Source: a virus
DNA length: 64,000 nucleotides
IMG/VR virus record: IMGVR_UViG_3300043436_002028
Span: 4,547-68,546 of that record
Reading direction: 5' to 3' (one strand)
The notes beneath the pieces are model-generated. The model was given only the letters and a program-made list of their open reading frames with translations. It made no database searches and was not told the origin of the DNA. The position numbers were made by a program, and so were the translations under genes. Positions within the stretch are counted from its first letter, which is position 1. The number at the start of each line of letters is the position of its first letter. This document shows, piece by piece, positions 10,404-58,878 of this stretch.

Positions 10404-10420
10404 TACAGCAAGGAATAAGT

Positions 10421-37518: not shown

Positions 37519-37534
37519 CCCGTTAAATTAACCC
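37519..37534 (+). promoter_or_regulatory. motif A copy 2
   Basis: Exact CCCGTTAAATTAACCC upstream of the lysis genes. Confidence 0.7.
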
Positions 37535-38642: not shown

Positions 38643-38646
38643 CCTT

Positions 38647-38675
38647 AACCCCACTGAAAAGTGGGGTTTTATTTT
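38647..38675 (+). terminator. intrinsic terminator
   Basis: AACCCCACT-GAAA-AGTGGGGTT followed by TTATTTT. Confidence 0.8.
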
Positions 38676-38702
38676 GCGGAAAAATCAGTATCTTATATGA
38701 TA
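38674..38702 (+). promoter_or_regulatory. motif B copy 1, putative early promoter
   Basis: TTGCGGAAAAATCAGTATCTTATATGATA; core GTATCTTATATGA occurs four times upstream of genes. Confidence 0.75.
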
Positions 38703-38761
38703 ACCTAAAAAGTAACATTTCGAGTTATCTTTAAATCAACCAACTAACCAAAAGGATTCAA

Positions 38762-39022
38762 ATGAAATTTCTACTAATTCTATTGCCTTTAGTTGCTAAT
38801 GCAACTGAAATTAAGCCTGTTGACCACCTAGGTCAAATTCAGTATAATAAGAACTCTTTGCGAATTGTTGATAATAAGATTGTTGAAGTGACACCAACTG
38901 GAAAAGTTGAGTATCATAAACAACAATATATTATTAAAGACAGTAAAGTTTTACCTGTTTCTTCTACTGGCCAAGTACAGTACCACAAACAAGGAGCTGC
39001 AAATGTTCTCAAAAGAAACTGA
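38762..39022 (+). CDS. small exported protein with three internal repeats
   Basis: Signal-like MKFLLILLPLVANA; three PV...G.(I/V).Y.K repeats. Confidence 0.6.
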   Translation: MKFLLILLPLVANATEIKPVDHLGQIQYNKNSLRIVDNKIVEVTPTGKVEYHKQQYIIKDSKVLPVSSTGQVQYHKQGAANVLKRN

Positions 39023-39143
39023 AGAATTATTCTTTAAAGTGTTTGGTGTGGATACAATCTTTAGACAAAGAAAATTTCCACGTAGTTATCAGACATATCA
39101 TGCGTATTGCAGACTAATGAGGATTCAAAGGATTGAATTATGA
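39003..39143 (+). CDS. hypothetical protein
   Basis: RBS AAGGAG; coupled to neighbours. Confidence 0.45.
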   Translation: MFSKETEELFFKVFGVDTIFRQRKFPRSYQTYHAYCRLMRIQRIEL

Positions 39144-39352
39144 AAGAGTTTATTAAAATGATTTTGATGCCATTTCAAAAGAAGAGCGCTGAATCTTTGC
39201 TTCAAGAAAGCATTGAAGAAGTAAAACGACAACTCATATCAACTCAAGCACAAGCTGTTTATGCTAGCAAAATGGTTGAGTACTATGAGCTTCGACTTGC
39301 CACGCTACGACTTCAAATCACAAACGGTATTGAGGGAGTTGCGGAAAAATAA
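39140..39352 (+). CDS. hypothetical coiled-coil protein
   Basis: RBS AAGGA; ATGA overlap. Confidence 0.6.
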   Translation: MKEFIKMILMPFQKKSAESLLQESIEEVKRQLISTQAQAVYASKMVEYYELRLATLRLQITNGIEGVAEK

Positions 39353-39367
39353 GTATCTTATATGATA
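39339..39367 (+). promoter_or_regulatory. motif B copy 2
   Basis: TTGCGGAAAAATAAGTATCTTATATGATA, one mismatch to copy 1. Confidence 0.75.
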
Positions 39368-39400
39368 GACAAAAGTCTATAAACTGAAAGGAGCCTTTAA

Positions 39401-39703
39401 ATGTTGTCTTTGAGATTCTTGCAATTAAGCCTTGCTATGTTTATTGCTTTCATATATGGTTATTTTATAACTGTAAGTTTGATGGCAATCATGATTGGTC
39501 TTGGAACTGATTTTATTATCGCATCCACAGTTGCTTTAGTATTATCTACTTATAGTTCACTTACTGTAACGGATAAGATTGAAGCAATTGCTGAAAAAAT
39601 CGCAACGAAAATTGTAGGTATTAGTTCTTTCTTCAAGGAAAAGAAAGAAGAATTTGATGCCTATAATTTCAATCGTAAAAATTGTGTTTATTTAATTTCG
39701 TGA
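39401..39703 (+). CDS. hypothetical membrane protein
   Basis: Two TM segments; RBS GAAAGGAG. Confidence 0.6.
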   Translation: MLSLRFLQLSLAMFIAFIYGYFITVSLMAIMIGLGTDFIIASTVALVLSTYSSLTVTDKIEAIAEKIATKIVGISSFFKEKKEEFDAYNFNRKNCVYLIS

Positions 39704-39842
39704 GGTCTTATGAAAAGCTTTGTAGAAAAAATTACCGATCCTGACTTTGGTGATAAACTGATTGTTTGGTTCTCATTGTATGGATTCGGTTTTGTAACTG
39801 GAATGCTAGTCTTTGAAAACACTTGCCGATAAGGAACTTAAA

Positions 39843-40082
39843 ATGAACTTCTTTAAAATCAAAGCAGCATCAATACTTTGCAAGTTTAGCAACTCTCCTG
39901 AGGCAAAAGTCTTAAGGTCAGTTATTAAACAGACTAAAGGTAATATTGAAGTTGCAGTTATTAACTTCGGAAAGCTTAAAATTAACGATGAAGACAGGGA
40001 CAGAATCCTTCAAGACCTGTCCAAAACACTTAATATCTTTAAGCATCCACAATTTAATTACGCAGTCGTTTCTAGCAATTGA
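39843..40082 (+). CDS. hypothetical protein
   Basis: RBS AAGGA. Confidence 0.55.
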   Translation: MNFFKIKAASILCKFSNSPEAKVLRSVIKQTKGNIEVAVINFGKLKINDEDRDRILQDLSKTLNIFKHPQFNYAVVSSN

Positions 40083-40093
40083 AAGGTTGAAAA

Positions 40094-40324
40094 ATGTTAT
40101 ACTCAATTTTTAGCACAGGTATTCGAGTTGCAGCTGTAACTCTTGCTATTGCCTCTCTGTTAGCTTTTCTAAGTGCACCAGTGTTTCTTGGAATGGTCAT
40201 CATAACAGCTTCTGTTGTTATGACTGTGTATGCGTATACGTTCATAGCTTTTATTATTGGAGCATTTTATAAATGGCTCAAAGTAAGGAAAGCAAATGAG
40301 CGATCAAATACGTATAACACTTGA
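40094..40324 (+). CDS. hypothetical membrane protein
   Basis: Two hydrophobic helices; RBS GAAAGG. Confidence 0.55.
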   Translation: MLYSIFSTGIRVAAVTLAIASLLAFLSAPVFLGMVIITASVVMTVYAYTFIAFIIGAFYKWLKVRKANERSNTYNT

Positions 40325-40598
40325 CGGATGGTATTGTGTAGCAAAAGATTATCCAGACCTTAGTAGAACAGTTTTAGATAGTAAAATATTTAAGAAGTCT
40401 GCAAGGGTCTTTAATCTTAATACCTTACACATAACAGACATAGATAGAATCCAAGGATCGTTCTTCAATCCGTGCTATGTAAAAGGTGTAGTATGCACCT
40501 CAGGGTCGCTAATCCCGTTCTTCATTTTGAGACAAAAAGCAAAAGAGCTACAAGAACTAATTGATTCGGTTCAGGATAATACGAGCATAACCTTGTAG
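40296..40598 (+). CDS. hypothetical protein
   Basis: RBS AAGGA; followed by a terminator. Confidence 0.55.
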   Translation: MSDQIRITLDGWYCVAKDYPDLSRTVLDSKIFKKSARVFNLNTLHITDIDRIQGSFFNPCYVKGVVCTSGSLIPFFILRQKAKELQELIDSVQDNTSITL

Positions 40599-40605
40599 CA
40601 GAGCG

Positions 40606-40658
40606 CCTCCGGCATCACCTCAAAAGGGTGGTGTCGGAGGTTTCTTTGTTTATTTTTT
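40606..40658 (+). terminator. intrinsic terminator
   Basis: CCTCCGGCATCACC-loop-GGTGGTGTCGGAGG followed by a T-tract. Confidence 0.8.
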
Positions 40659-40671
40659 GTTCGGAGGTTAA

Positions 40672-40809
40672 ATGAACTCTCTTGATATCAAGATTATTCA
40701 TTTTCTATTGCTCGTGATAATCCTTGCATTGTTTTCTAAATTGACTATAGATGCTATAATCCTAGGTGCTGTTGCTATATATCTGTATCAGCGCAGAGGA
40801 ATGGCATGA
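40672..40809 (+). CDS. small membrane protein (45 aa; not in ORF track)
   Basis: RBS GGAGG; hydrophobic translation. Confidence 0.45.
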   Translation: MNSLDIKIIHFLLLVIILALFSKLTIDAIILGAVAIYLYQRRGMA

Positions 40810-40875
40810 TCGAAGCGCTTGTTGGTATTTATTTAATAACTCTTGTTCCAAAAATTGTTGTAAGGATTGCAAAAG

Positions 40876-43161
40876 GTGAGACAAAAACTGATAGAACTAA
40901 TTGACGCAAGAGTACAGTCTGAAATTGCACCTCAGAATCCATTAAAGTTTCTGAGTAAGCTTAAGGCTGAAAGCTATATAGATACCGTAATTTCTATAGT
41001 ATACCTATATACTAGAAAGAAACGCGGATCTGTTACAAACACCATATATCTAACTGAAGTCATTTCAGCCTTAGGCCATGGTGTTAGAAATAAATTTAAA
41101 CTTAAAAGAGACTCTGCAATAGCTGCTAAAACAGGTGCTTTTCTTTTATTTAACTTCGAAGTTTTAGAATTACTTCAAGTTGTTCTAGGTAAAGGTACTA
41201 ACGGTCATCAAAGTTATATCATACAGGTTCTTAATGATGATGCTATTTGCAAGTTATGGGAAAGTCTTCCACCAAATCAAATTGAAAAACTTCCTTCAGA
41301 GAAACCATACGCACCTTGGATTACTGCTAAACACGAATCTGGTGTGTGGTTGGTTAAAACAAGAAATAAAGATGTCTTAGATAAGCTAACAATTGACACA
41401 CACCCGATTGTATTTAGTTCTATTAATAAGTCTCAAGCAATTGGTTGGCGTATTAATAAAGAAATCTATGAAATACAACAGTGGGCTTTAAGAAATAAAA
41501 CAGAAGCTTTTTCAGATATTTGGGAAGCTCAAAATGCTGAAGCTAAAGCTACCAAACTAAGAGAAGCAAAAGCAATTGCGAGTATTGCAAAGAGGTTTGT
41601 AGACAAGACATTCTATCATCTATATTATTACGATTTTAGAGGTAGGAAATATCCAACTACAGCTTACTTGCATGAACAAGGTTCTGACTCTGCTAGAGGT
41701 TTGCTTTTAAGAGAAGACTCTAAGCCAATAGGTAAAGATGGCTTCTTCTGGCTAACAGTATCAATTGCTAATAACTGGGCAGGTGATGCTGGAAGAGAAG
41801 ATAATGCAAAGACTGATAAGATTCCTTTAAAAGACCGACATTTCTGGGTTATTGATAATGAGGACATTCTTATTTCTTATGCAGAAAAACCAAAAGTTAA
41901 TCAAGGTTGGATGAAAGCTGATAAACCTTGGCAATTTCTTGCTGCTTGTCTTGAACTGAAAAGATTCAGAGACTGGCAAATGTCTTTCTTCGATGACTAT
42001 ATTGACATTGGAATTATAGACAGTGCCTTAGAAAACTTAGGTGTAGATCCTTATGATTTCAATTCAAGTCTGGAGTGTTATATTGACGGTAGTAATAATG
42101 GTTCTCAGCACTTGTCTGCTTTGACGCGTGATGAGATAACAGCGCCACATGTTAACTTAATACCTTTAGATTTACCAGGAGATCTTTACAAATATGTTGC
42201 AGAACATGTGTGGTCTCGACTTGAAACTCATATAAAGTCAATGGACCCGACTATCGTAAAAGCTTGTGAAACTTTCATAGATAATCTTATTGAAATTAAA
42301 AAACAAATTCAGTCAGCAGAACCTAAAAGTGATGCTAGAAAGACTTTGGTAGATAACATTCTACAATTCAAGAACGATAACGCAGCTATTGCAGATATTT
42401 GTGCGCCTGTCTATTGGGCTAGAGTTGTAGATTTAAAGCACAGAAGAAAAGTTGTTAAGCGAAATGTAATGACACTGCCTTATGGTGGTACAGCTTATGG
42501 TCTAGGTCAACAACAAATTGATGATGCTCGAAAGCATGGAATTGATTTGTTACTACATATGGAACATAAGTGGGGTGCTTATCTAGGCAGAGAAGTGTTT
42601 GAAGATTGTCGTATATCTTTGAAGAGGCCAATGCAATTGCTTTCAGTATTTGAAGAGGCTGGTAGAAAAGCCGAATTAAATGGAAAGTTTCTGTCATGGA
42701 CTGTTCCCGTAACTAACTTTCCTGTAGTCCAAAGCTACACAGAAGGCATTGTTAAAAAGATATGGGTTCAGTATGGGCCTCCTGTAGGTGAAAGAAATAG
42801 CTCAGGCTATTTTGATAACACATTGCAGTTAGCTGTATGCTTTATTGAAGATGTTAAGCCATCAAAAGGTAAACAATCTCAAGGTGCTAGTCCTAATGCA
42901 ATCCATAGTTTAGATGCAGCACATCTAGCTATTACTGCAGATAGGGCAGATTTTCCAATAACTACAATTCATGACAGTTTCGGTTGTTTGCTAGCAGATA
43001 TGCCTAAATTGTTTAAATTAATTAGACAAACTTTCGTGGAGTTATACAATGCCGACCCCTTAACATCTATTATGAAAGATATTGAAGGTGATATTAGTAA
43101 CGTTCAATTTGGAAATCTAGACATCACATTAATTCTGGATTCTGAATATTGTTTTGCTTAG
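40876..43161 (+). CDS. T7-like single-subunit DNA-directed RNA polymerase (stand-alone)
   Basis: DFRGRKY, DKPWQFLA, IDGSNNGSQHL (A), RKVVKRNVMTLPYG (B), PNAIHSLDAAH, IHDSFG (C), C-terminal SEYCFA; GTG start inferred from RBS spacing. Confidence 0.95.
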   Translation: MRQKLIELIDARVQSEIAPQNPLKFLSKLKAESYIDTVISIVYLYTRKKRGSVTNTIYLTEVISALGHGVRNKFKLKRDSAIAAKTGAFLLFNFEVLELLQVVLGKGTNGHQSYIIQVLNDDAICKLWESLPPNQIEKLPSEKPYAPWITAKHESGVWLVKTRNKDVLDKLTIDTHPIVFSSINKSQAIGWRINKEIYEIQQWALRNKTEAFSDIWEAQNAEAKATKLREAKAIASIAKRFVDKTFYHLYYYDFRGRKYPTTAYLHEQGSDSARGLLLREDSKPIGKDGFFWLTVSIANNWAGDAGREDNAKTDKIPLKDRHFWVIDNEDILISYAEKPKVNQGWMKADKPWQFLAACLELKRFRDWQMSFFDDYIDIGIIDSALENLGVDPYDFNSSLECYIDGSNNGSQHLSALTRDEITAPHVNLIPLDLPGDLYKYVAEHVWSRLETHIKSMDPTIVKACETFIDNLIEIKKQIQSAEPKSDARKTLVDNILQFKNDNAAIADICAPVYWARVVDLKHRRKVVKRNVMTLPYGGTAYGLGQQQIDDARKHGIDLLLHMEHKWGAYLGREVFEDCRISLKRPMQLLSVFEEAGRKAELNGKFLSWTVPVTNFPVVQSYTEGIVKKIWVQYGPPVGERNSSGYFDNTLQLAVCFIEDVKPSKGKQSQGASPNAIHSLDAAHLAITADRADFPITTIHDSFGCLLADMPKLFKLIRQTFVELYNADPLTSIMKDIEGDISNVQFGNLDITLILDSEYCFA

Positions 43162-43170
43162 GAGATTTTA

Positions 43171-43689
43171 ATGTTACAATTCAAAAATTTTATAGAGGTT
43201 TATAACGGTTTTAAAGAAGGTAAAGTTCCTTTTTGTATTCTTCAGGAGAGTGCAAAAAGTCAAGCAAGCTTTCTAGATGGTTTTTCAGATGCTTATGATC
43301 CAAACGGTGAAATGGAGCTTCAAAAGATTATTGAAATTAAAAATAGTTTAAACACATCTGAAGAGGATTCTTTTATTTATAACTTAGGAGGTGATCTATT
43401 TATTTGTGAAACTGAAGAAGATCTTAAATCAATCGAAGGTTGTGATTTTGAATGGGCTAAAGCTCATGATGATAAGTGGCCAAATGTGACAGACAAGCCT
43501 ATGGTATGGGATCATTGTGATTATGTAAACAGAGATCCTGCTTCTGGCTGGTTTGTGTTCTTGCTTTGTTGGAATAATGCAGGTGGCCCAATTTATTATG
43601 TTCCTCAAGCTTTGTGGGAAACTGCAAGAGTTGAAGAACATCTTAAAGTACATATCGAATCTTGGAAAACAAACAGCGAGAATTATTAA
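43171..43689 (+). CDS. hypothetical protein
   Basis: RBS AGGAG; acidic and Trp-rich. Confidence 0.6.
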   Translation: MLQFKNFIEVYNGFKEGKVPFCILQESAKSQASFLDGFSDAYDPNGEMELQKIIEIKNSLNTSEEDSFIYNLGGDLFICETEEDLKSIEGCDFEWAKAHDDKWPNVTDKPMVWDHCDYVNRDPASGWFVFLLCWNNAGGPIYYVPQALWETARVEEHLKVHIESWKTNSENY

Positions 43690-43889
43690 TGCTAATTACC
43701 CGAAAAAGTATTTTTACTGGAATTGAAAGAACTCTTGATATTCCAATTACACAACAGCAGTTTGACGACTGGTCTAAAGGAATGCTAATACAAGAAGCTA
43801 TGCCAAATATTACTGGTGATCAAAGAGAATTTATTTTAACCGGCTGTACTCCAGATGAATGGGATGAAGCCTTTAAAGAGGAAACTTAA
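43689..43889 (+). CDS. conserved small phage protein
   Basis: KS..TG..RT.D......W..G.LIQ.AMP.....REFI.TG.TP.EW pattern. Confidence 0.7.
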   Translation: MLITRKSIFTGIERTLDIPITQQQFDDWSKGMLIQEAMPNITGDQREFILTGCTPDEWDEAFKEET

Positions 43890-43890
43890 A

Positions 43891-44244
43891 ATGAGTCAAG
43901 TAACTTATAACAACCCCGTAACAATGGAAAAAGGAATTAATACCATGAAAATGATTATTCAAATTGATAGAAGCAGCAATTTGTGCTTTGATTTTGATCC
44001 TAACTTGGCTGATGTGTTGCTTGAAAGTCAGCTTGTTAGCCTTGACTTCGATTGGAATGGAGAACTCAAAAAAGTACAAGTTCAAGAATTTAAACCTAAA
44101 ATTATTTTAATTAAAGAGTCTCAGATTGAGCCACAAAAAGTCGATACGAACAAGCAACTAAAAGAAATGGAACAACATAAGCAGAAAGCTCTTGCGGAAG
44201 CTGCAGCTATTGAAAAAGAAATGGAACAGTTGCGTAGCATCTGA
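43891..44244 (+). CDS. hypothetical protein
   Basis: RBS GAGG; C-terminal coiled coil. Confidence 0.55.
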   Translation: MSQVTYNNPVTMEKGINTMKMIIQIDRSSNLCFDFDPNLADVLLESQLVSLDFDWNGELKKVQVQEFKPKIILIKESQIEPQKVDTNKQLKEMEQHKQKALAEAAAIEKEMEQLRSI

Positions 44245-44245
44245 A

Positions 44246-44261
44246 CCCGTTAAATTAACCC
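44246..44261 (+). promoter_or_regulatory. motif A copy 3
   Basis: Exact CCCGTTAAATTAACCC upstream of the SSB/replication operon; overlaps hairpin ACCCTCT...AGAGGGT. Confidence 0.7.
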
Positions 44262-44302
44262 TCTGATGAGTAGAGGGTATTTCAGTAAACTAAGGAAAGA
44301 AA

Positions 44303-44800
44303 ATGCCTATCATTAAAGACTGTGAACTTTGGTTTCTTCAGGTTAACCCGAAGCGTCCTAATAAAACTTTTAATCCAGAAAACCCAACCTGGGAATGTCA
44401 GATTCGCACTCAAGACAAAGCTGTGAAGAAGATGTGGGAAGAAATGCATTTGCCTGTTAAGGCTATTGTTCCTGACGAAGGTGCGCCTTACTTTAGGGTG
44501 AATCTTCGAAAGAAAACAATCAAGAGCGATGGTGAAAAAGCAACTCCAGTTAAAATTATTAATGGAGAGCTTGAAGAAATCGATCCTGATACTGTTGGCA
44601 ATGGCTCTATCGGTAATGTTCGTATCTTCCAATATGAATATAGTAAAGGTGGCATGAAGAGCATGGCAAGTGTGCTCATGGGTATTCAAGTTACCAAACA
44701 CGTCATGTACAAGCGGAAAGCTCGTGATGACGATTTCCAAATGACTGAAACGGAGACCGTGGGTGAAGACAACGCCGAAATGGGCGATGACGCATTCTAA
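44303..44800 (+). CDS. single-stranded DNA-binding protein (T7 gp2.5-like)
   Basis: VGNGS.GNV...Y......L.GIQV pattern; acidic tail ending in Phe. Confidence 0.8.
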   Translation: MPIIKDCELWFLQVNPKRPNKTFNPENPTWECQIRTQDKAVKKMWEEMHLPVKAIVPDEGAPYFRVNLRKKTIKSDGEKATPVKIINGELEEIDPDTVGNGSIGNVRIFQYEYSKGGMKSMASVLMGIQVTKHVMYKRKARDDDFQMTETETVGEDNAEMGDDAF

Positions 44801-44808
44801 GTAAGTAC

Positions 44809-44838
44809 AAGGGCTATCTCTTAAAGGGATAGCCCTTT
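44809..44838 (+). terminator. terminator-like hairpin
   Basis: AAGGGCTATCTC-TTAAA-GGGATAGCCCTT with a short T run. Confidence 0.6.
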
Positions 44839-44859
44839 AAATTCTTGAAAAGGACAAAC

Positions 44860-45468
44860 ATGCTGTACACATATACTTGCTACACACGAGATGATGTAGG
44901 AACACCTGTTAGAAAAGATATAACTACTAGGTTTGAAGAAATTAAAGAAGCCGATGTCGTTGCACCAAATTATGTAGATATTTACAATAATCAGAAAATG
45001 CAACATGTCAGACTTCTTAGCAATCTTGATGACTTTGAAAATTGGCAAATTACTCTTGAGCGAGTAGCTACTTGGAAACCTGAAAAGCCTTCTCAAGACT
45101 TGCCTGACGCTAATTTGAAAACTCGTGTAGCTATTAATAAACCTACTCTATCTGCAATTCCACCCGTTGCTATTTATGCATTAGGTGCTGCTATGCAAGA
45201 TGGTGTAAATAAATACGAGAAATATAATTGGCGTGATGCTGGCGCAACATCGTCTATTTTCTTTGATGCTATGTGCAGACATTTGTTTGCCTGGTATGCT
45301 GGAGAAGATCATGCAACTGATAGTAAGATACACCATCTCGGTCATTTAATGGCTGGTTGTGCTATTATCATGGATGCAGAGCTGCATGGTAAGTTAAACG
45401 ACGATCGTAAGGCATCTGATATAGAAGAGCCTATTAAAGCTTTTATGGAATATATTAAAGGAAAATAA
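44860..45468 (+). CDS. dATP/dGTP diphosphohydrolase-domain protein (DUF5664 type)
   Basis: K..L..IP..A...L..AM..G..KY..YNWR...DA..RHL..W..GED...DS..HHL.H. Confidence 0.8.
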   Translation: MLYTYTCYTRDDVGTPVRKDITTRFEEIKEADVVAPNYVDIYNNQKMQHVRLLSNLDDFENWQITLERVATWKPEKPSQDLPDANLKTRVAINKPTLSAIPPVAIYALGAAMQDGVNKYEKYNWRDAGATSSIFFDAMCRHLFAWYAGEDHATDSKIHHLGHLMAGCAIIMDAELHGKLNDDRKASDIEEPIKAFMEYIKGK

Positions 45469-47361
45469 ATGTCTAGATGGCTATTCGACATTGAAACTGA
45501 CGGATTGCTGCAAAAATGTTCTAGAATGTGGATTCTTGCCGCCTATAATCTTGATACTAAAGAAATGAAGTATTGGTTAGAAGGAGATTTAGGTTGGCAA
45601 GAAGAGTTTAGTAAAGCAAAGTTAATTGTAGGCCATAATATTCTTGGCTTTGACGTATTTGTTCTTAAGAAGCTTTTTAATTTTGACTTTCCAAAAACTT
45701 GTAATTTTCACGATACACTCTTAATGTCTCAAATTCTTAATTATAAAAGATTTAAGAATGACGGACATAGTCTTGAAAGGTGGGGTATTGCATTAGGTGT
45801 TGAAAAACACGACTTCAACGATTGGTCTAAGCTTAGTCAAGAAATGATTGACTATTGTTTACAAGACGTTAAAGTAAATATTGAAGTCTATAAAGTACTC
45901 TTAGGAGAACTTACAAGACTTGCCGAGAAGAGCCCACCTATTAAAGATTATCTTAGAGCTGAACATGCTGCCGCTAAATGGTGTACATCTGCTAGTTTAC
46001 ATGGTTGGCCTTTTGATTTAGAAAAAGCAAGAGAGCTTTATACTAAATTAGAGGCTTCTATGCAAAAAGCGTATGATGCACTGTCAGAAAGATTAGGAAC
46101 GAAAACAGTTGCTGTAGATTTAAAGAAGGGTATTGTAGAAGTTAAAAAGCCTAAGTGGACAAAGCAAGGCTTTTATGATGCACATACTGCCAATTGGTTT
46201 GGTATTGATCCTTGCTCTGGCTATGAGGGTGAAGAAAGACCAATTGCAGGTGAATACTGCAGAGTAGAGTTTGTAAAGCTGTCTTTAGATTCTGTTGCTG
46301 ATGTAAAGTTATTTCTTTACAGAAACGGTTGGTCTCCAACTGAATGGAATTATAAGATAAATCCTGAAACAGGAAAGAAAGAAAAAGGCTCTCCTAAGAT
46401 TACTGAAGATAGTCTTGAATTTCTAGGTGGTGATGGTAAACTTTATACAGACTTTTTAACTGCAAAATCTAGACTTGGTATCCTCAAAACTTGGATTGAA
46501 AATACTGATGCTAACGGTATGTTACATGGTGATATGATGTTAATAGGCACGCCAAGTATGCGTGCAAGGCATAGTATCATCGTTAATGTTCCTGCAGCTG
46601 ATAGTGCTTGGGGTCCAGAAATGAGAGCTTTGTTTACTTGTAAGCCAGGATGGAAACTTATCGGTTGCGATTCATCTGGTAATCAAGCAAGAGGTTTAGC
46701 TCATTATCTAAAAGACGAAGAGTTTATTGAAACACTTCTTCATGGAGATATTCACCAATATAATGCTAATGTTCTTACGGATGTTATCAATAAGATTGGA
46801 CTAAAAGAGCAAAATCTTGAGTTGATTAATTTCACAGTAAAGCGAGCACAAGCTAAGAGAGTTTTGTATGCTTTCTTATTTGGTGCTTCTGGTGCTAAAT
46901 TGTGGAGTTATGTGTTTGGTGTTCTTGATGATTCTCTTGGTAAGCGTCTCAAGTCTGGTTTCTTGAAGGCTGTGCCTGGATTTAAAGCATTGTTAGAAAA
47001 GCTTGAAAATATTTATGGCAAGACTTCGCAAGAAGGAGATGGCTATATTCCATCAATTGCAGGTAACAGGCTTTATGTAGACTCTTTTCACAAACTTCTT
47101 GTATACTTACTGCAATCTACAGAGAAAGTTACCTGTAGTGCAGCCTTAATGCTTACTGCAGAACAGCTAGACAAAGAAAATATCCCATATATTCCTTGTA
47201 TTTATTATCATGACGAAATTGATTTTCAAGTTCCTGAAGAGTTTGCAGAAAGAGCTGCTGAAATAGGTAAAAATGCTTTTGCAGAAGGTCCAAAACTATT
47301 TGGCATTACTATTATGGGTGGTGATGCTAAAATTGGTAAAGACTGGTATGAAGTACACTAA
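45469..47361 (+). CDS. polA: DNA polymerase, family A (T7 gp5-like)
   Basis: Exo motifs FDIETDGL, GHN..GFD, YC.QDV; pol motifs GCDSSGNQAR, R.QAK...YAFLFG, HDE. Confidence 0.95.
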   Translation: MSRWLFDIETDGLLQKCSRMWILAAYNLDTKEMKYWLEGDLGWQEEFSKAKLIVGHNILGFDVFVLKKLFNFDFPKTCNFHDTLLMSQILNYKRFKNDGHSLERWGIALGVEKHDFNDWSKLSQEMIDYCLQDVKVNIEVYKVLLGELTRLAEKSPPIKDYLRAEHAAAKWCTSASLHGWPFDLEKARELYTKLEASMQKAYDALSERLGTKTVAVDLKKGIVEVKKPKWTKQGFYDAHTANWFGIDPCSGYEGEERPIAGEYCRVEFVKLSLDSVADVKLFLYRNGWSPTEWNYKINPETGKKEKGSPKITEDSLEFLGGDGKLYTDFLTAKSRLGILKTWIENTDANGMLHGDMMLIGTPSMRARHSIIVNVPAADSAWGPEMRALFTCKPGWKLIGCDSSGNQARGLAHYLKDEEFIETLLHGDIHQYNANVLTDVINKIGLKEQNLELINFTVKRAQAKRVLYAFLFGASGAKLWSYVFGVLDDSLGKRLKSGFLKAVPGFKALLEKLENIYGKTSQEGDGYIPSIAGNRLYVDSFHKLLVYLLQSTEKVTCSAALMLTAEQLDKENIPYIPCIYYHDEIDFQVPEEFAERAAEIGKNAFAEGPKLFGITIMGGDAKIGKDWYEVH

Positions 47362-47437
47362 ATGTTCTTCGTTCTGTCATCAAAATGAACTCTGTCATAT
47401 TACAGAGACTGGTGTATGTGATTATTTGGAGAAAGAA

Positions 47438-48448: not shown

Positions 48449-48451
48449 TCT

Positions 48452-50250: not shown

Positions 50251-50414
50251 ATAAACTTTCAAGTATAGCAGCTTTTTTATTTGCACTAACGGCACTATTT
50301 ATTGTAAGCTACTTGCTTGTCGATATCGTGCATAGAGCCGAGTTTACAAATCCTGATTTGATTATCAGTGCAATTTGTTGTAGTGTTATTGCAACTACAT
50401 TATCTAAAAAGTAA
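50247..50414 (+). CDS. small membrane protein (55 aa; not in ORF track)
   Basis: Two hydrophobic segments; fills the gap with coupled start and stop. Confidence 0.5.
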   Translation: MNKLSSIAAFLFALTALFIVSYLLVDIVHRAEFTNPDLIISAICCSVIATTLSKK

Positions 50415-52048: not shown

Positions 52049-52078
52049 CTTTCATTAACAAACAAGAAAAGGATTGAA

Positions 52079-53986: not shown

Positions 53987-54205
53987 AAAGGCTGAAATAG
54001 TCTTAAGTGATGGATCATTTGCATCTATTTATCATTTAAAATTAGGTCATCTAGTCTTAACAGAAGATAGCAGTGATATGCTACGTGCTGCTAAGTTGAT
54101 AACCTTGACTGTGAAAATAGATGATAAATACATTGGAATTGAAGAGGCACTAAATCTAAATGTGTCAGATTTCAATTTAATCATAAAACATTTGACTAAG
54201 TAAAT

Positions 54206-54231
54206 AAGGCGAGGTTCAATCCTCGCCTTTT
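54206..54231 (+). terminator. intrinsic terminator
   Basis: AAGGCGAGG-TTCAAT-CCTCGCCTT followed by TT. Confidence 0.7.
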
Positions 54232-54249
54232 AAATTGAAAGGAAACAAA

Positions 54250-54603
54250 ATGAGTGTTACATTCCATCCAGATGTGCATGATAGATTCTTTGTAGTACCT
54301 AACAAAGATTTTAATCCCGCAGAACCAGAAGATCCTATTTATAACCCTCGAACATCACTAGAAGAAATTTACTTAAGCGTAAATCTCTCTAATATTAGTG
54401 CAGGTATGATTTTACGTTTGATAGGTTATTATAACGAAGAATTATATGGAAGAATTGGCGGTAAAGATCTTGACAACTTTATTGATGCTGTAGTGGTCTT
54501 GCAAGAAAAATATGATGATAATTATATTACAAGCACTTCTGCACGCTTAGAAAGAGTTGCAAGGCTTAGTAAGCATCTTAATGTACCCCTAGTATGGGCG
54601 TAA
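54250..54603 (+). CDS. hypothetical protein
   Basis: RBS GAAAGGA. Confidence 0.6.
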   Translation: MSVTFHPDVHDRFFVVPNKDFNPAEPEDPIYNPRTSLEEIYLSVNLSNISAGMILRLIGYYNEELYGRIGGKDLDNFIDAVVVLQEKYDDNYITSTSARLERVARLSKHLNVPLVWA

Positions 54604-54610
54604 GGAGAAT

Positions 54611-54895
54611 ATGATGGAGCTCGAAAGAGACGATATTGCTCGACAAGAATTTGAGCAAGACTTGTTAAGTGTTATTCTGAAACATGAGATTAATACTAAA
54701 ACAAATATACCAGATATTATCTTGGTAAAGAATATAATAAATACAATAAATCAATTGCAACAGTTTGATGCGGATATGTCTGATTTTTATGAATCAGAAA
54801 TAACTTATGATAGTGATGATGGCGACCATGCCTCAGCTCTAGCGTCCGCAGGATGGGGAACGGATGAAGATTACGGATCAGCAGATAATTATTAA
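54611..54895 (+). CDS. hypothetical protein
   Basis: RBS AAGGAG; acidic tail with ALASAGWGTDEDYG. Confidence 0.6.
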   Translation: MMELERDDIARQEFEQDLLSVILKHEINTKTNIPDIILVKNIINTINQLQQFDADMSDFYESEITYDSDDGDHASALASAGWGTDEDYGSADNY

Positions 54896-54923
54896 TAACT
54901 TTCTAAAAACCTCAAAAAATTAT

Positions 54924-54951
54924 TTGAGAGTAATTTAGTATCTTATATGAA
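54924..54951 (+). promoter_or_regulatory. motif B copy 3
   Basis: TTGAGAGTAATTTAGTATCTTATATGAA abutting the RBS AAGGAG. Confidence 0.7.
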
Positions 54952-54962
54952 AGGAGACAGTA

Positions 54963-55118
54963 ATGAACTGTTTTGAAAATGAAGTTAAGGCCTTAATAAT
55001 TAAATATAAAATGGACTTAGAGACTGGTATGAAGCCTGAGCATCTAGCGGCTTACTTAGATAGGTGCTTTAAAAACCTAAGAGAAACAATTGTTACTATC
55101 GTGGAGGACGAACAATGA
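54963..55118 (+). CDS. hypothetical protein (51 aa; not in ORF track)
   Basis: RBS AAGGAG; resembles the N-terminal half of 54611-54895. Confidence 0.6.
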   Translation: MNCFENEVKALIIKYKMDLETGMKPEHLAAYLDRCFKNLRETIVTIVEDEQ

Positions 55119-55276
55119 ATACCTGGTCTGTAAAGTATTGGAGTATGCTTATCTCTCAATATCAATACACAGTTATTCAGGCTGTTGATTTGTCAGATTT
55201 ATCTCACAAGCTGTACGCTATGAATATTTATCCAAATACTATACTCAAAGTTGAAAAGGTGGCTGTACATGTTTAA
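55115..55276 (+). CDS. hypothetical protein (53 aa; not in ORF track)
   Basis: RBS GGAGG; ATGA overlap. Confidence 0.5.
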   Translation: MNTWSVKYWSMLISQYQYTVIQAVDLSDLSHKLYAMNIYPNTILKVEKVAVHV

Positions 55277-56168
55277 GCCTATGCTTGCACCTGGAGAAGA
55301 TCCAAAGTCATTTCCAGACTATTTTAAGAAGCTCAAGTATCCATTGTTAGCTTCAGCTAAATACGATGGAATTCGATGTGTAGTAAAGTCTGGTCATTGC
55401 TTGTCTAGAAGTGGAAAAATATTACCTTCACTACAAGTTCAAGAAGAATTTAGTCATTTGAAGGATTTAGATGGTGAACTTATTGAAGGCAATCCTACAG
55501 ATCATGATGTATACAATCGGACACAAAGCCATGTAATGTCTGAAGATAAGCCTGGTAACTTAACATTCTATGTATTTGATTATACTCACGAAGATTTTCT
55601 TCAAAAACCGTTCTATGAAAGACTTGAAGAGGTTGAGAAAATTTTGAAGCTTTATGATATGCAATCTGTAAAGATTGTGCCTCATGAAAATATTGAAAAT
55701 TACGAAGAGCTAATAGCTTTTGAAAACAAGTGTCTTGAACTTGGTTTTGAAGGTATTATGATGAGAGATCCTTTAGGTTATTACAAGAACGGACGAGGCA
55801 CTTTTAGAGAAGGGCTTATCTATAAACTTAAAAGATTTGAAGATTCCGAAGGTGTAATTGTAGGTCTTGAAGAACAAATGACTAATAACAACACTCTTGA
55901 AAAGGATGAGTTAGGTTATGCTAAGAGATCTTATGCAAAAGATGGAATGGTTCCATCAGGAACTTTAGGTAATTTTAAAGTTGTATGGAATGAAATGTAC
56001 TTGGACATTGCTCCAGGTTCTTTCAATCATGAACAACGACAAAAGATCTGGAATAACCCATCTAGGTATATTGGCAAGTTACTTAAATTTAGATACTTTA
56101 ACCATGGGATTAAAGACAAGCCACGATTCCCTCGTGCTGTGGGCTTTAGAGATGAAATGGATCTATAA
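55269..56168 (+). CDS. ATP-dependent DNA ligase
   Basis: KPMLA, KYDGIR (motif I), DGEL, FYVFD, EG.M.R, KLK, PRFP. Confidence 0.92.
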   Translation: MFKPMLAPGEDPKSFPDYFKKLKYPLLASAKYDGIRCVVKSGHCLSRSGKILPSLQVQEEFSHLKDLDGELIEGNPTDHDVYNRTQSHVMSEDKPGNLTFYVFDYTHEDFLQKPFYERLEEVEKILKLYDMQSVKIVPHENIENYEELIAFENKCLELGFEGIMMRDPLGYYKNGRGTFREGLIYKLKRFEDSEGVIVGLEEQMTNNNTLEKDELGYAKRSYAKDGMVPSGTLGNFKVVWNEMYLDIAPGSFNHEQRQKIWNNPSRYIGKLLKFRYFNHGIKDKPRFPRAVGFRDEMDL

Positions 56169-56417
56169 TGAAAAAGAGTAATTGGAGGCTCAACAGACTT
56201 TAAATTATTAAGGAGATTAAATTGACTGAGACAGTAGATGAAATGCAAGAGTATATAACATACTCTGGCGGAGATATAGCTGATTTTGTTATGAATCAAC
56301 AACAGGAGGTAATTGAACTATTTGAAACAGGTTCAGCCGAGTTTTATATAAATGAAAAATGCTATATTATTAAAATCAATATAGTTGAAGTTAAACCAAA
56401 CCTTTAGGATTAAAGAA

Positions 56418-57389
56418 ATGTCAGGAATGAAAAGGAATACAATCAAACTAGTTTTGAAAGAAAAACTTGAAAGCTGGCTTGAAACCGTGGATGATCAAAA
56501 TGTCTCTAGTTTAATTAAGAGAGATGTTATTGTTAGTGGGGGTGCAATTGCCTCTATGCTAGCAGGAGAAAAGATTAATGATTATGATCTTTACTTTAGA
56601 ACCAGAGAGACTACAGAAGCTGTTGCAAAATACTATGTAAATAAGTTTAATGAATCTAATGGGCAACTTTCTACAAAAGCAATGAGGTCTTGTAACCCAG
56701 AAGTCAAGACAGAAATTAGAAAGAATGTCAAGGGTAATGAAGAACACCGTGTAATTATTTACATGAAATCTTCAGGAGTTGCCTCTGAAAATCAATCTGA
56801 ATATCGTTACTTCGAAGGCGAGGGTGAAGTATCTGCTGATGAATTTATGGATTCTCTTAAAACAGATCCAATGGAAACTGCAACAGATTTAGTTGAAATC
56901 GTAAAGGATAAGAAAACTAAATTTAGGCCTGTGTTCTTTTCAGAGAATGCGATCACACTTTCAGATAAAGTACAACTAGTAATTCGCTTTTACGGTTCTC
57001 CAGAAGAAATTCACGAGAATTATGACTATGCACATTCAATGTGCTACTACGACTATCAAGCAGATTCCCTAGTATTGCATCCAGAAGCTCTAGAGTGTGT
57101 TTTATCAAAAACTCTTATCTATAAAGGAAGTTTGTACCCAATTGCATCTATCTTTAGAATCAGGAAATTTATTGAAAGAGGTTGGCGAATTACTGCAGGT
57201 CAGCTCTTAAAAATTATCTGGCAGATTAATGAAATAGATTTAAAAGACCCTGCTGTACTGAAAGAACAGCTTACTGGTGTAGATCAAGCTTATATGCATC
57301 AATTGCTGAGAGCTTTAGAAACTAAAGAAGCGAATCAAAAGATTGATAGCACTTATCTTGCAAAATTAATTGACGAAATTTTTGAATAA
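56418..57389 (+). CDS. nucleotidyltransferase (Pol-beta superfamily)
   Basis: VSGGAI.S.L.....NDYDLYF signature; ..DY.H and R..KF..RGW. Confidence 0.7.
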   Translation: MSGMKRNTIKLVLKEKLESWLETVDDQNVSSLIKRDVIVSGGAIASMLAGEKINDYDLYFRTRETTEAVAKYYVNKFNESNGQLSTKAMRSCNPEVKTEIRKNVKGNEEHRVIIYMKSSGVASENQSEYRYFEGEGEVSADEFMDSLKTDPMETATDLVEIVKDKKTKFRPVFFSENAITLSDKVQLVIRFYGSPEEIHENYDYAHSMCYYDYQADSLVLHPEALECVLSKTLIYKGSLYPIASIFRIRKFIERGWRITAGQLLKIIWQINEIDLKDPAVLKEQLTGVDQAYMHQLLRALETKEANQKIDSTYLAKLIDEIFE

Positions 57390-57398
57390 GGATTTAAA

Positions 57399-57644
57399 AT
57401 GGAATTCACTGAAGACACCCTTAAAAAGATAACAAATAATGAATTTATTACTTGGATTATGAACTATTCAAATTCAGGTGCACTTTCACAAGCTGTTGTT
57501 ATTGAAGCTCTTAGATACTATACAGATTATGTTCTTAAGAAAGGAGAACCTGTAGAAACTGGAAATGAAATTATCAGACCGATAGCTTGGTACAAAGCTG
57601 CTGAAGAAATCAATCAAAAAGTGAAACTCAAATATGGAAATTAA
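57399..57644 (+). CDS. hypothetical protein
   Basis: RBS AAGGA; TN.EF....M..S..GAL.QA.VIEA.R.Y. Confidence 0.6.
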   Translation: MEFTEDTLKKITNNEFITWIMNYSNSGALSQAVVIEALRYYTDYVLKKGEPVETGNEIIRPIAWYKAAEEINQKVKLKYGN

Positions 57645-58494
57645 AATGCAAAAGCCTTTAGTTATATATCACAAAGACTGCGCAGACGGCTTAGCTGCTG
57701 CATGGTGTTTCTGGAAACAGTACAAAGATTCGTTTGATTATTATCCTGGTGTTTATAATGTTCCACCACCAGATGTGTTCGATCGAGATGTTTACATGGT
57801 AGACTTCTCGTATAAACACGATGTAATGGAAATGATTTGTAAATACGCTAACAAAGTTGTACTGCTCGATCATCATAAATCAGCACTTGACGATTTATGG
57901 GATCTTGCGGCACTTCCAAACTTTTCAATGGATTATGCAACAGACAGCATGAGTGGTGCTATGATTGCATGGCAGTATGTTAAAGACACGAGTGGTCATA
58001 AAAGAAAACTGCCAGAGCTTCTGAAACACATTCAAGATCGAGACTTGTGGAAGTTTGAACTACCTCATACTCGTGAAATAATGTCTGCTGTATTTTCCTA
58101 TGAAAAGTCTATGACTGAATATGATAAGCTAATGAAGCTTACTAAAGTCGGTATTAAAGACTTAGTTAAAGAGGGTAAAATTATTGAGCGTAAATATCAA
58201 ATGGATCTTTGTGGCTTGATAGCTCAATGTAAACGACACATAGAGTTTGAAGGTTACAATGTACCAATTGCAAACCTTAATGGCTTGTATGCAAGTGATG
58301 CTGGAAGTGTTATGTCAGAAGGATACCCATTCTCTATGACATATTATGATACAGAAAATCATCGAGTGTTTAGTTTGAGATCAAAACCTACAGGTATTGA
58401 TGTCTCAGAGATTGCCGCTAAATATAACGGTGGTGGTCATAAACATGCTGCAGGTTTTAAGGTAGTTCGTAGTCATGCTCTCTCAAAAATTTAG
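57634..58494 (+). CDS. DHH/DHHA1 family phosphoesterase
   Basis: YH..C.DG..AAW, VDF, LDHHKS, QDRDLW, SLRS, GGGH..AAG. Confidence 0.88.
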   Translation: MEIKMQKPLVIYHKDCADGLAAAWCFWKQYKDSFDYYPGVYNVPPPDVFDRDVYMVDFSYKHDVMEMICKYANKVVLLDHHKSALDDLWDLAALPNFSMDYATDSMSGAMIAWQYVKDTSGHKRKLPELLKHIQDRDLWKFELPHTREIMSAVFSYEKSMTEYDKLMKLTKVGIKDLVKEGKIIERKYQMDLCGLIAQCKRHIEFEGYNVPIANLNGLYASDAGSVMSEGYPFSMTYYDTENHRVFSLRSKPTGIDVSEIAAKYNGGGHKHAAGFKVVRSHALSKI

Positions 58495-58793
58495 TCATAA
58501 ATTTTGTACAGTCTGTAAAGTATCAGATTGTCTTACAGGTAAATATTTAAAAATACCTGAAAATACTATGCGACAAAGATGGGTATGTCAAAAGTGTATT
58601 GCCAGAGCTACGTCCAGTATAGTTAAATTTAATCTAAAAATAAACACTTTAAATCGCCCCGAGGTGCAAGCCGCAAGGATCGGGAAGAGTTGCCCCATGA
58701 GTTGCCCGCACAGCTCCACCATGGCCTGTCTGGGTAGCCCCTTGGGGCAGTTTGAAACCAAAGGAGACTAATAGATGAACGATCCCTAGACAA

Positions 58794-58809
58794 CCCGTTA
58801 AATTAACCC
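58794..58809 (+). promoter_or_regulatory. motif A copy 4
   Basis: Exact CCCGTTAAATTAACCC. Confidence 0.7.
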
Positions 58810-58849
58810 TATTTCTGAAAATAGAGTTAGGTTTCCCAACGCTGGCCGT

Positions 58850-58878
58850 TTGCGTTAAAAATGGTATCTTATATGATA
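58850..58878 (+). promoter_or_regulatory. motif B copy 4
   Basis: TTGCGTTAAAAATGGTATCTTATATGATA. Confidence 0.75.

Follow-up and report, generated by a model that had tools for sequence, protein, structure and literature searches.

The phage DNA analysed here, a window of 64,000 nucleotides, carries four copies of a block of about 30 bp, motif B, which we take, with a probability of roughly 60%, to be a duplex promoter of the T7 type that serves a virion-borne polymerase, the MuF-RNAP, and opens a relay of two polymerases; both the start site and the reader are deduced from sequence. Extending this to the large, uncultured family of long-tailed phages to which the DNA belongs, we consider it slightly better than an even bet that the whole relay is independent of host RNAP, with the capsid MuF-RNAP acting on an unusually long and almost immutable bipartite promoter (a GCG-AAA box plus GTATCTTATATGA) to express a second RNAP, which would then act on CCCGTTAAATTAACCC to transcribe all remaining genes, that of the MuF-RNAP among them. 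The features on which this reading draws are the following.

10400..15049, + strand: gene of the 1549-aa MuF-RNAP fusion, between portal and scaffold/capsid genes; candidate reader of motif B
15056..15070, + strand: motif A (CCGTTAAATTAACCC), right after the MuF-RNAP stop codon, 5′ of the scaffold and major capsid genes
37520..37534, + strand: motif A, 5′ of the 182-aa/endolysin operon
38647..38668, + strand: terminator-like hairpin (9-bp stem and T run), closing the late (endolysin) operon directly 5′ of motif B copy 1
38674..38702, + strand: motif B copy 1, upstream element TTGCGGAAA and core GTATCTTATATGA at 38688-38700
39339..39367, + strand: motif B copy 2, TTGCGGAAA and core at 39353-39365
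40605..40641, + strand: terminator-like hairpin (16-bp stem and T run), after the small early ORFs and before the gene of the 764-aa RNAP
40867..43161, + strand: free T7-like RNAP, 764 aa, with its gene 3′ of motif B copies 1 and 2; candidate reader of motif A
44247..44261, + strand: motif A, about 50 nt 5′ of the SSB gene and replication module
54924..54952, + strand: motif B copy 3, deviant upstream element TTGAGAGTA and core at 54938-54950
58795..58809, + strand: motif A, in tandem with motif B copy 4
58850..58878, + strand: motif B copy 4, TTGCGTTAAA and core at 58864-58876
G000:380, outside the window: motif A, fifth copy

All four copies of motif B listed by the first-pass annotation (38674, 39339, 54924 and 58850) were recovered on the + strand, which is the gene strand, the 13-mer core GTATCTTATATGA being exact in each, compared with 0.00 exact matches in dinucleotide-preserving shuffles (n = 100). 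The full 68,546-bp phage genome likewise holds the core four times forward and never in reverse. When up to two mismatches are allowed, the window has five matches against 2.7 expected, the fifth (25292, two mismatches) lying within the tape-measure gene at chance level. Copy 1 follows the terminator-like hairpin by 6 nt, with the ATG of an 86-aa ORF 61 nt further on, while in copy 2 the variable spacer holds the stop codon of an upstream 70-aa ORF and a 100-aa ORF runs from 39401. Copy 3 has GAG in place of GCG in its upstream element, and the ribosome-binding sequence AAGGAG (54951-54956) directly adjoins its core, as had been pointed out before, followed by the ATG at 54963 of a 51-aa ORF and then by the ligase gene. 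Copy 4, whose core begins 69 nt after the start of the neighbouring motif A, stands ahead of a 186-aa ORF and of the tRNA region.

We looked for the same block in related IMG/VR phage contigs, whose second (764-aa) RNAP is 41–80% identical, and found the 13-mer to be near-invariant within a consensus of about 30 bp, AA-n-(T/C)GCG(G/C)AAA(A/T)(A/T)-nn-R-GTATCTTATATGA-(A/T)-R. At least one copy with no more than one mismatch is present in 51 of 69 related loci (L005-L073); 17 of the 18 others have less than 1.8 kb upstream of the RNAP gene, and the last, L043, has a two-mismatch variant with GCGCAAA upstream. Scanning IMG/VR with GCGNAAANNNNNGTATCTTATATGA gave matches in at least 148 stretches. 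Since these sites were collected through the core itself, with near-duplicate metagenomic sites removed by exact sequence only, unbiased information comes from the flanks, the spacing, the direction and an anchor test, in which sites were chosen by GCGnAA at a fixed offset alone and mismatches in the core then counted. The outcome of this test is bimodal, with 48 distinct sites at zero mismatches, 8 at one and 1 at two, none at three or four, 1 at five and the bulk at 6 to 13; no core with four or fewer mismatches appeared on the reverse strand. The block is invariant though the RNAPs of the family have diverged to 41–53% identity, and it is still present in a contig whose MuF-RNAP is just 53% identical. 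No cultured member of the clade was found in the phage collection searched.

The direction and placement of motif B are those of a signal for the genes that follow it. Of 167 sites, 135 have an ORF start led by a ribosome-binding site no more than 80 nt downstream, compared with 5 in the opposite direction, and the median ORF start falls at core index 53, about 40 nt after the motif. At 4 of 172 sites (copy 3 of the window and three relatives) the ribosome-binding site begins at index 13–15 and the ATG is at index 25–26, which means that the RNA must begin inside the conserved core. Hairpins near motif B are found only downstream and vary in sequence: stems of at least 5 bp start at index 8–14 in 93 of 175 sites, over a background of about 5 per position, and at −8 or −7 in 2 of 175. 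Across 10 complete genomes motif B always occurs in the interval that separates the late module from the gene of the 764-aa RNAP, with one or two further sites later on, and it is the nearest motif 5′ of that gene directly in nine of them and, in the tenth (G007), only across the contig ends. The structural modules of these genomes contain no motif B with an upstream element on the gene strand, the only two matches there being on the opposite strand with one mismatch each. Motif B is thus a strand-specific intergenic block, repeated in the genome just 5′ of genes, as expected of a promoter for a single-subunit RNAP.

Its internal layout, AAAWW-nnR-GTATCTTATAT-GA-W-R, is compatible with a T7-type promoter with a presumed +1 at its end, though the additional GCG element falls outside the T7 footprint. 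Promoters of the T7 family initiate at a purine directly after a TATA-like element, and their classical footprint extends from −17 to +6; the conserved block of motif B reaches about 23–27 bp upstream of the supposed start and is longer. The proposal of the first-pass annotation that this is a phage-RNAP promoter starting near TATAT-GA, most probably for the MuF-RNAP, is supported by the conservation, direction and placement given above, by the lack of conservation at the positions that define sigma70 promoters and by the co-variation of motif A described below, with the enzyme and the start as its putative parts.

The genome encodes two T7-type RNAPs, the kind of enzyme that a single-subunit RNAP promoter requires. 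The MuF-RNAP, present in all 10 complete relatives, has a Phage_Mu_F domain at residues 152-258 and a T7-type RNAP in its C-terminal ~850 residues (Pfam Phage_Mu_F and RNA_pol), with catalytic motif A Asp in DASSSGAQ at 1018, catalytic motif B K..YG with YG at 1092 and catalytic motif C HDAF at 1447; an alignment of 31 sequences shows no variation at the catalytic D, K, Y-G and D. The best PDB matches of its structural model (pLDDT 81, pTM 0.79) are full-length T7 RNAP and mitochondrial RNAP, over some 830–870 columns with E values near 1e-16, which makes a sequence-specific reader of duplex DNA plausible. The polymerase part has no cysteine, and this, together with the MuF fusion and the location of the gene between portal and scaffold, suggests that the protein is packaged in the virion and injected. 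Both polymerases occur in every complete genome examined that bears motif B, and co-occurrence therefore cannot tell which of them is its reader.

A second motif, CCCGTTAAATTAACCC (motif A), heads the capsid and replication operons. In each of the 10 complete genomes a motif A stands between the MuF-RNAP stop codon and the capsid genes, and one is also found 5′ of the SSB gene, the canonical form being absent only from G006 and G007, the latter having CCCGCTAAATTAATGAT in its place. These are also the genomes in which the specificity-loop region of the 764-aa RNAP differs most, G006 having lost 12 residues there and G007 carrying several substitutions; motif B and the corresponding loop region of the MuF-RNAP are constant in all 10. 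Motif A thus appears to change along with the loop of the 764-aa RNAP, in two variant lineages, and it is by exclusion and by this co-variation that motif B is assigned to the MuF-RNAP.

It is unlikely that the free 764-aa RNAP reads motif B as a second promoter class, with motif A or host promoters being used first by the MuF-RNAP or the host. Both polymerases accompany motif B in all complete genomes, as noted above, and motif A lies about 60–110 nt 5′ of some motif B copies (3 of 30 sites, and more elsewhere), so that both can serve one operon; T7 itself has promoter classes of differing strength. However, with motif B as the nearest upstream motif, the gene of the 764-aa RNAP would need its own product, and with motif A as the early class transcription would begin with the operons for capsid, scaffold and endolysin. 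Where the specificity loop of this enzyme changes, motif A changes but motif B does not, and motif B is invariant where the enzyme is only 41–51% identical. Since the two motifs share no sequence, a single specificity loop is also unlikely to recognise both. Quite improbable, too, is a role for motif B as a site bound by a phage regulator or as an RNA-level signal (a processing site or 5′-UTR element) within longer transcripts. Though ATCnTATAnGAT is a quasi-palindrome in 10 of 12 positions if index 13 is T, the core is frequently trailed by hairpins, and stop codons of upstream genes often fall within or just 5′ of the block, as for any intergenic signal, the conservation is not symmetrical: nothing downstream matches the GCG-AAA element, and only 66 of 173 sites have T at index 13. 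The orientation of the motif strictly follows the genes, the terminator directly before copy 1 calls for a new start there, and the two motif classes match the two phage polymerases in number.

We regard as highly improbable that motif B is a sigma70 early promoter of the host (TTGCGG-16-TATGAT), similar to A1–A3 of T7, or a promoter used by host and phage enzymes alike. Copies 1, 2 and 4 carry TTGCG and TATGAT with a 16-nt spacer, a terminator stands 5′ of copy 1, and the placement before early genes and a phage RNAP gene resembles that of the T7 early promoters. The form TTGCGG-16-TATGAT first put forward fits copies 1 and 2 literally, but copy 4 has TTGCGT and copy 3 TTGAGA...TATGAA; similarly, the TTG(C/A)G described upstream is present at all four sites, but what is conserved is (T/C)GCG(G/C)AAA and not the TTG of a −35 box. 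When 173 sites are considered, TTG is found in 60 and the final T of the −10 hexamer, near-invariant for sigma70, in 66 (A in 101), both together in 23, and a sigma70 scan accepts only 2. The observation that the spacer is unusually conserved holds across relatives, 8 of its 16 positions being invariant (GTATCTTA), whereas sigma70 constrains the length of the spacer and not its sequence; the invariant GCG and GTATCTTA lie where sigma70 requires no specific base. In the window the scan listed none of the four copies and gave as many matches as in shuffles. A sigma70 start, 7 nt past the hexamer, would remove the ribosome-binding site, an argument made earlier for copy 3 that extends to the four sites described above. 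The host, moreover, is probably not the same among members (source labels Flavobacterium sp. versus Gammaproteobacteria MAG). Nothing requires the dual use with host RNAP that had been suggested, and sites with both TTG and the final T are few.

With motif B as the promoter of the MuF-RNAP, the relay would run as follows. The MuF domain would place the 1549-aa fusion in the capsid, from which it would enter the cell along with the DNA; its T7-like domain would bind motif B and initiate within the terminal ATGA, with the G or an adjacent A as the likeliest position, giving purine-rich leaders, many opening with a hairpin. From the observed gene order, copies 1 and 2 would give early transcripts over small ORFs of takeover type and the gene of the 764-aa RNAP, copy 3 over the ligase/DHH block and copy 4 over the tRNA block. 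The 764-aa RNAP would next read CCCGTTAAATTAACCC at the head of the replication, capsid and lysis operons, and as CCCGTTAAATTAACCC also heads the late module containing the MuF-RNAP gene, the relay would be closed. A capsid-carried polymerase would allow the first phage genes to be switched on without the host enzyme, though the host may have a share in early transcription, as a strong sigma70-like match (11 of 12) is present at 38820-38848, shortly 3′ of copy 1.

Promoters of the T7 group (T7, T3 and SP6) extend from about −17 to +6 and are read by a single-subunit RNAP. Like them, motif B is a contiguous, strand-specific and near-invariant block ending at the presumed start; it can be read as an A/T-rich stretch, a specificity segment, a TATA-like run and a purine, the bases that would be transcribed first being purine-rich, and the predicted fold of the MuF-RNAP resembles full-length T7 RNAP. 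Unlike them, it is unrelated in sequence to their consensus, is longer, with the GCG element some 10 bp further upstream, and has as its proposed reader a capsid-borne MuF fusion rather than the free product of an early gene. Whereas T7-group promoters differ even among close relatives, motif B is kept across a family with RNAPs down to ~53% identity. In T7 the host promoters A1–A3 lie ahead of the early genes and the RNAP gene; motif B would similarly provide a cluster of two to three promoters, which follows the late region and precedes small early genes and the gene of the phage RNAP, but its sigma70-defining positions vary and its ‘spacer’ does not.

The proposed relay would work as in coliphage N4 (Schitoviridae), in which the virion RNAP gp50 acts on early promoters and RNAP II follows. 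It would share with N4 an injected phage RNAP acting on few early promoters and an early second phage RNAP that takes over, and the cysteine-free polymerase part is common to virion enzymes of the N4 type. It differs in that a long-tailed phage has an enzyme of ~850 aa joined to MuF, compared with a 3500-aa protein in a podovirus, and in that late genes seem to use the second phage RNAP through motif A, compared with the host enzyme in N4. N4 mini-vRNAP is absent among the listed top fold matches of the MuF-RNAP model. The early promoters of N4 are DNA hairpins with a 5–7-bp stem and a 3-nt loop, a type we rejected for motif B as none of 175 sites has a stem of at least 5 bp starting at index −13 to −9 and hairpins occur only downstream. 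The nearest cultured relative is the Naomviridae roseophage DSS3_VP1, which has the same gene order, an ORF of 1510 aa resembling the MuF-RNAP (~31% identical) and a T7-like RNAP (34.6% identical). It lacks motif B, the single one-mismatch match to the 10-mer core equalling the control, and in the available part of the paper on these phages ‘RNA polymerase’ does not occur and ‘promoter’ occurs once, in an unrelated context.

If the assignment holds, motif B is the cognate promoter of a virion-borne T7-type RNAP that is described in none of the papers our searches brought up. The MuF-RNAP fusion, so far a domain curiosity, would become a testable regulatory circuit, in which an enzyme acts on a 30-bp target and the early and late regulons are predicted; virion-RNAP relays would extend beyond N4-like podoviruses, an N4-like strategy having been assembled independently from T7-type parts, and a promoter would, unusually, have stayed fixed while its polymerase diverged to ~53% identity. 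It would also provide two new compact and orthogonal polymerase/promoter pairs that could be used in orthogonal expression and to transcribe DNA in vitro. Motif B can also serve as a simple sequence tag by which the family, and the early regions of its genomes, can be recognised in metagenomes. Within the early region of the window, the hairpin at 40605..40641 is a possible attenuator of early transcription, and the N-terminus of the 86-aa ORF after copy 1 resembles a signal peptide.

The promoter-like element motif B, which consists of a 13-mer core, GTATCTTATATGA, and a box upstream of it, is present in the window as four exact cores starting at 38688, 39353, 54938 and 58864, all on the + strand. 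The first-pass annotation had reported four copies at these places, and they are real and far beyond chance: dinucleotide-preserving shuffles of the window gave 0.00 exact matches against the four found, and the whole genome holds the same four on the gene strand and none on the opposite strand. Each copy has TTG(C/A)G ahead of it, where that annotation had placed it. The second copy has the stop codon of the preceding ORF inside its spacer, the core of the third is directly abutted by AAGGAG with an ATG at 54963, and the core of the fourth begins 69 nt after the start of a copy of motif A, a second repeated intergenic element, (a/c)cCCGTTAAATTAACCC(t), with five copies in the genome and a family-wide occurrence. 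The window covers bases 4547-68546 of an IMG/VR phage contig (68,546 bp) that is rated 98% complete and carries every gene on the + strand, in the order listed here.

Genes and elements in genome order (window coordinates unless prefixed G000, the window's own genome)
G000:380-394, before the window: motif A
8336-9967, +: portal, with the tail fibre before it
10400-15049, +: MuF-RNAP fusion, 1549 aa, with Pfam Phage_Mu_F (152-258) and RNA_pol
15056-15070, +: motif A, directly after the MuF-RNAP stop codon and ahead of the scaffold/capsid genes
After MuF-RNAP and before the tape measure, +: scaffold, then major capsid
20254-28083, +: tape measure
Between tape measure and endolysin, +: 2559-aa tail protein
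37520-37534, +: motif A, heading the lysis operon
38136-38642, +: endolysin
38647-38668, +: terminator-like hairpin, ending 6 nt before motif B copy 1
Between endolysin and 764-aa RNAP, +: small ORFs
40867-43161, +: 764-aa T7-like RNAP
44247-44261, +: motif A, ~50 nt before the SSB gene
After the 764-aa RNAP, in this order, +: SSB, T7-lysozyme-like amidase, DNA polymerase, exonuclease, primase-helicase, ribonucleotide reductase
After ribonucleotide reductase, in this order, +: small ORFs, ligase, DHH phosphoesterase, five tRNAs, more small ORFs
58795-58809, +: motif A, in tandem with motif B copy 4
59775-61716: tRNA genes Ser-TGA, Thr-TGT, Arg-TCT, Leu-TAA and Met-CAT, in the region that the tandem pair of motif A and motif B copy 4 serves

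Using the 764-aa RNAP as query, we collected 69 family loci (41–80% identity) and 10 outgroup loci (25–28%). The 13-mer occurs with at most one mismatch in 51 of the 69, always on the gene strand and usually as 2–3 copies lying 1–5 kb upstream of the RNAP gene. Among the other 18, the sequence available ahead of that gene is shorter than 1.8 kb in 17, and the last (L043) carries the variant TCATCTTATATGA behind GCGCAAA, while no site bearing the upstream box was found at the 10 outgroup loci. Flanks lying outside the search pattern define this box as (T/C)GCG(G/C)AAA(A/T)(A/T), followed by 2–3 free positions and a purine, in 85 distinct sites and again in a set of 173; these site sets were gathered via the core itself and de-duplicated by exact sequence only. 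For a non-circular check we anchored on GCGnAA alone at a fixed offset and then counted core mismatches, which gave 48 distinct sites with none, 8 with one, 1 with two, none with three or four and 1 with five, followed by a background hump at 6–13; the same test on the opposite strand gave no site with four or fewer. The core varies only at positions 0, 1 and 12, and the GCATC and ATGG forms, considered as lineage switches, were rejected as such since they co-occur with canonical copies in several genomes and so mark tolerated positions. A scan across IMG/VR with box plus core matched at least 148 stretches. A contig encoding a MuF-RNAP of 53% identity retains the motif with two changes; in a more distant MuF-RNAP clade (~40% identical; G012–G015) there is no GCG box, and core matches with 1–2 mismatches are chance-like only. 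The upstream part of copy 3 in the window (54924-54936) has GAG instead of the GCG seen in 57 of 57 anchor-test sites and 84 of 85 logo sites; this copy may be weak or differently regulated.

Motif B behaves as a promoter would with respect to its neighbours. An RBS-led open frame starts on the same strand, no more than 80 nt downstream, at 135 of 167 distinct sites with enough flank (median core index 53, counted from the core start), compared to 5 of 167 when the sites are read in the opposite direction, and the end of the preceding gene is typically no more than 20 nt from the block. At face value the element can be read as TTG...TATGAT, a sigma70-like reading that the first-pass annotation had mentioned as possible. 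This reading does not hold across the 173 sites, where the upstream box is GCG-AAA and not a -35 element: the T of TTG (index -14) is present in ~37%, the final position of the TATGAT hexamer is T in 66, both occur jointly in 23, and 2 would be called by a promoter scan. A sigma70 scan of the window listed none of the four copies and gave hit numbers equal to those of shuffles. We therefore reject a sigma70 promoter as the account of the conservation, as neither the TTG nor the final T is kept. Separately, a strong sigma70 consensus match of 11/12 (TTGACC-17-TATAAT) lies at 38820-38848, within the first early ORF on the gene strand and ~130 nt after copy 1, and allows for some transcription of the early region by the host.

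The position of the RBS also bears on where the RNA begins. The first-pass annotation had argued from copy 3 that a sigma70 start would remove the RBS, and this argument extends to four sites in all, copy 3 among them, with the RBS at index 13–15 and the ATG at 25–26; a start 6–8 nt past TATGAT would delete the RBS at these sites, which places the expected start of the RNA within the conserved core. Purines predominate just downstream of the core, and C is absent from index 13–14 in the 173 sites. In a profile of stems of at least 5 bp, scored by the position of the outermost base, 93 of 175 sites have the outermost base at index 8–14 versus ~5 per position elsewhere (wide-window folding, index -25 to +59, was uninformative), which is suggestive of transcripts that start in ATGA and carry a hairpin at their 5' end. 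A leaderless start at the ATG inside the core was rejected, since only 32 of 172 sites are followed by an open frame of at least 45 codons, about what a rough estimate expects from in-frame overlap with the next gene. Transcription most likely starts within ATGA, and T7 promoter geometry was used to place candidates for +1. With the G as +1, the block would run from about -27 to +3 with ATAT at -4 to -1; with the T before it, TATA would lie at -4 to -1; with the A before that T, AAAWW would lie at -17 to -13 and conservation would end at +6, as it does in T7 class III promoters. Motif B is probably a promoter for a phage single-subunit RNAP.

The MuF-RNAP has the sequence features of an intact enzyme of this type. 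Both its Pfam matches, Phage_Mu_F and RNA_pol, exceed the curated cut-offs, and the residues of the polymerase motifs (motif A Asp, motif B Lys/Tyr-Gly and motif C Asp, in polymerase nomenclature) are invariant in 31 aligned relatives. The C-terminal 849 residues, modelled with AlphaFold (pLDDT 81, pTM 0.79), align in structure with full-length T7 RNAP and mitochondrial RNAPs over ~830–870 columns (E ~1e-16), and N4 mini-vRNAP is not among the top fold matches listed. Since the fold match is to T7 RNAP, a T7-like duplex promoter is likelier than an N4-type hairpin; unlike the latter, motif B has a conserved block without an inverted repeat, none being found in the stem profile of 175 sites. 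The two cysteines of the fusion both lie in the MuF domain (230 and 253), so that the ~1296 residues after it are Cys-free; the 764-aa RNAP has nine. From the MuF domain, the gene's position between portal and scaffold, and the Cys-free polymerase part, we infer that the MuF-RNAP is packaged in the capsid. In three relatives its gene is split in the polymerase part by inserts of several hundred to ~1000 bp (G001:C1:60801-66303, G006:C1:7903-14221 and G007:C1:30616-37868, with query breaks near residues 887, 1019, 1086-1090 and 1427-1456). Database annotation calls the fusion an "SPP1 gp7 family head morphogenesis protein".

We mapped both motifs on ten complete genomes, the window's own and nine relatives. 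Motif A, which heads capsid, lysis and replication operons, always lies after the MuF-RNAP stop and before scaffold/capsid, ~50 nt before SSB, and before the last late operon; a CCCt...aGGG hairpin often follows it, and its 3' half is identical to the opening ten bases of the consensus for T3 promoters. Motif B (2–5 copies) always clusters in the interval that follows the late module and precedes the 764-aa RNAP gene, with 1–2 further sites after the replication genes. The structural module of these genomes holds no gene-strand motif B with the upstream box, only two opposite-strand matches with one mismatch. Motif B is directly the motif nearest upstream of the 764-aa RNAP gene in 9 of 10 genomes; in the tenth, G007, this holds only with the contig ends joined. 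A tandem A-B arrangement was rejected as a rule, being seen at only 3 of 30 sites.

As each of the ten complete relatives tested encodes both polymerases, co-occurrence is uninformative as to which reads which motif. Because the promoter of the 764-aa RNAP gene itself needs a reader, motif B would have to be read by something present before phage gene expression; with motif A in the early role, transcription would begin with the capsid, scaffold and endolysin operons. Canonical motif A is absent only in G006 and G007, and the region of the 764-aa RNAP aligned to the T7 specificity loop has a 12-residue deletion in G006 and several substitutions in G007, a co-variation that rests on these two lineages. 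In G007 four copies of CCCGCTAAATTAATGAT stand at the syntenic places, and in G006 repeated words (AGGTAGAGA, AGCAGTAA) gave no convincing replacement motif. The matching MuF-RNAP segment (NILQVPQKTEATWWEQVINKSGKINDIAD...) is conserved in 10 of 10 genomes, as is motif B. Bootstrapping, co-variation and the suitability of the enzyme for duplex DNA thus favour the MuF-RNAP as the putative reader of motif B. The layout is that of a relay: motif B precedes the 764-aa RNAP gene, and motif A heads the late module, in which the MuF-RNAP gene lies. Motif B probably serves a T7-type polymerase delivered from the capsid as its early promoter: the MuF-RNAP would read it first, and the 764-aa RNAP, expressed behind it, would form the second stage. 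The first-pass annotation had proposed such an early promoter for the MuF-RNAP, and placement, co-variation and the duplex-type fold support it, as a reading from sequence.

Literature searches found no paper describing the MuF-RNAP fusion, its promoters or either motif string. Iyer et al. 2017 (PMC5512222) discuss MuF fusions separately from N4-type virion RNAPs and describe the N4-like virion RNAPs as confined to N4-like phages or prophages; a term search of the Naomviridae paper (PMC8323127) gave no occurrence of "RNA polymerase" in the text searched. The nearest cultured phages by RNAP are distant, namely the roseophages DSS3_VP1 and DSS3_PM1 (34.6% identical), and the RNAP of the Pelagibacter phages Kolga and Aegir is 28% identical to the 764-aa RNAP. 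DSS3_VP1, like the phage studied here, encodes a MuF-RNAP-like frame (1510 aa), but it has no motif B. A blastn search of 38000-45900 against phage records gave no close cultured relative, the sole match being 64 bp to Colwellia phage 9A.

Host labels conflict, with "Flavobacterium sp." as one UniRef label versus a Gammaproteobacteria-titled bin for two contigs in the genome-contig scan; AGGAG precedes starts at 56 of 173 motif B sites, which indicates RBS use by the phage only and not the identity of the host. The first ORF behind motif B copy 1 (38762-39022) encodes 86 aa with a signal-peptide-like N-terminus (MKFLLILLPLVANA...) and matches no family in either Pfam or PHROGs. A very strong terminator-like hairpin (40605-40641; 16-bp stem, 9 GC pairs, T run) separates the small early ORFs from the 764-aa RNAP gene and may limit read-through from motif B into that gene. 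Additional to the endolysin at 38136-38642, the T7-lysozyme-like amidase at 44845-45468 (PHROG "endolysin; inhibits RNA polymerase") adjoins the DNA polymerase gene and is a candidate regulator of the 764-aa RNAP.
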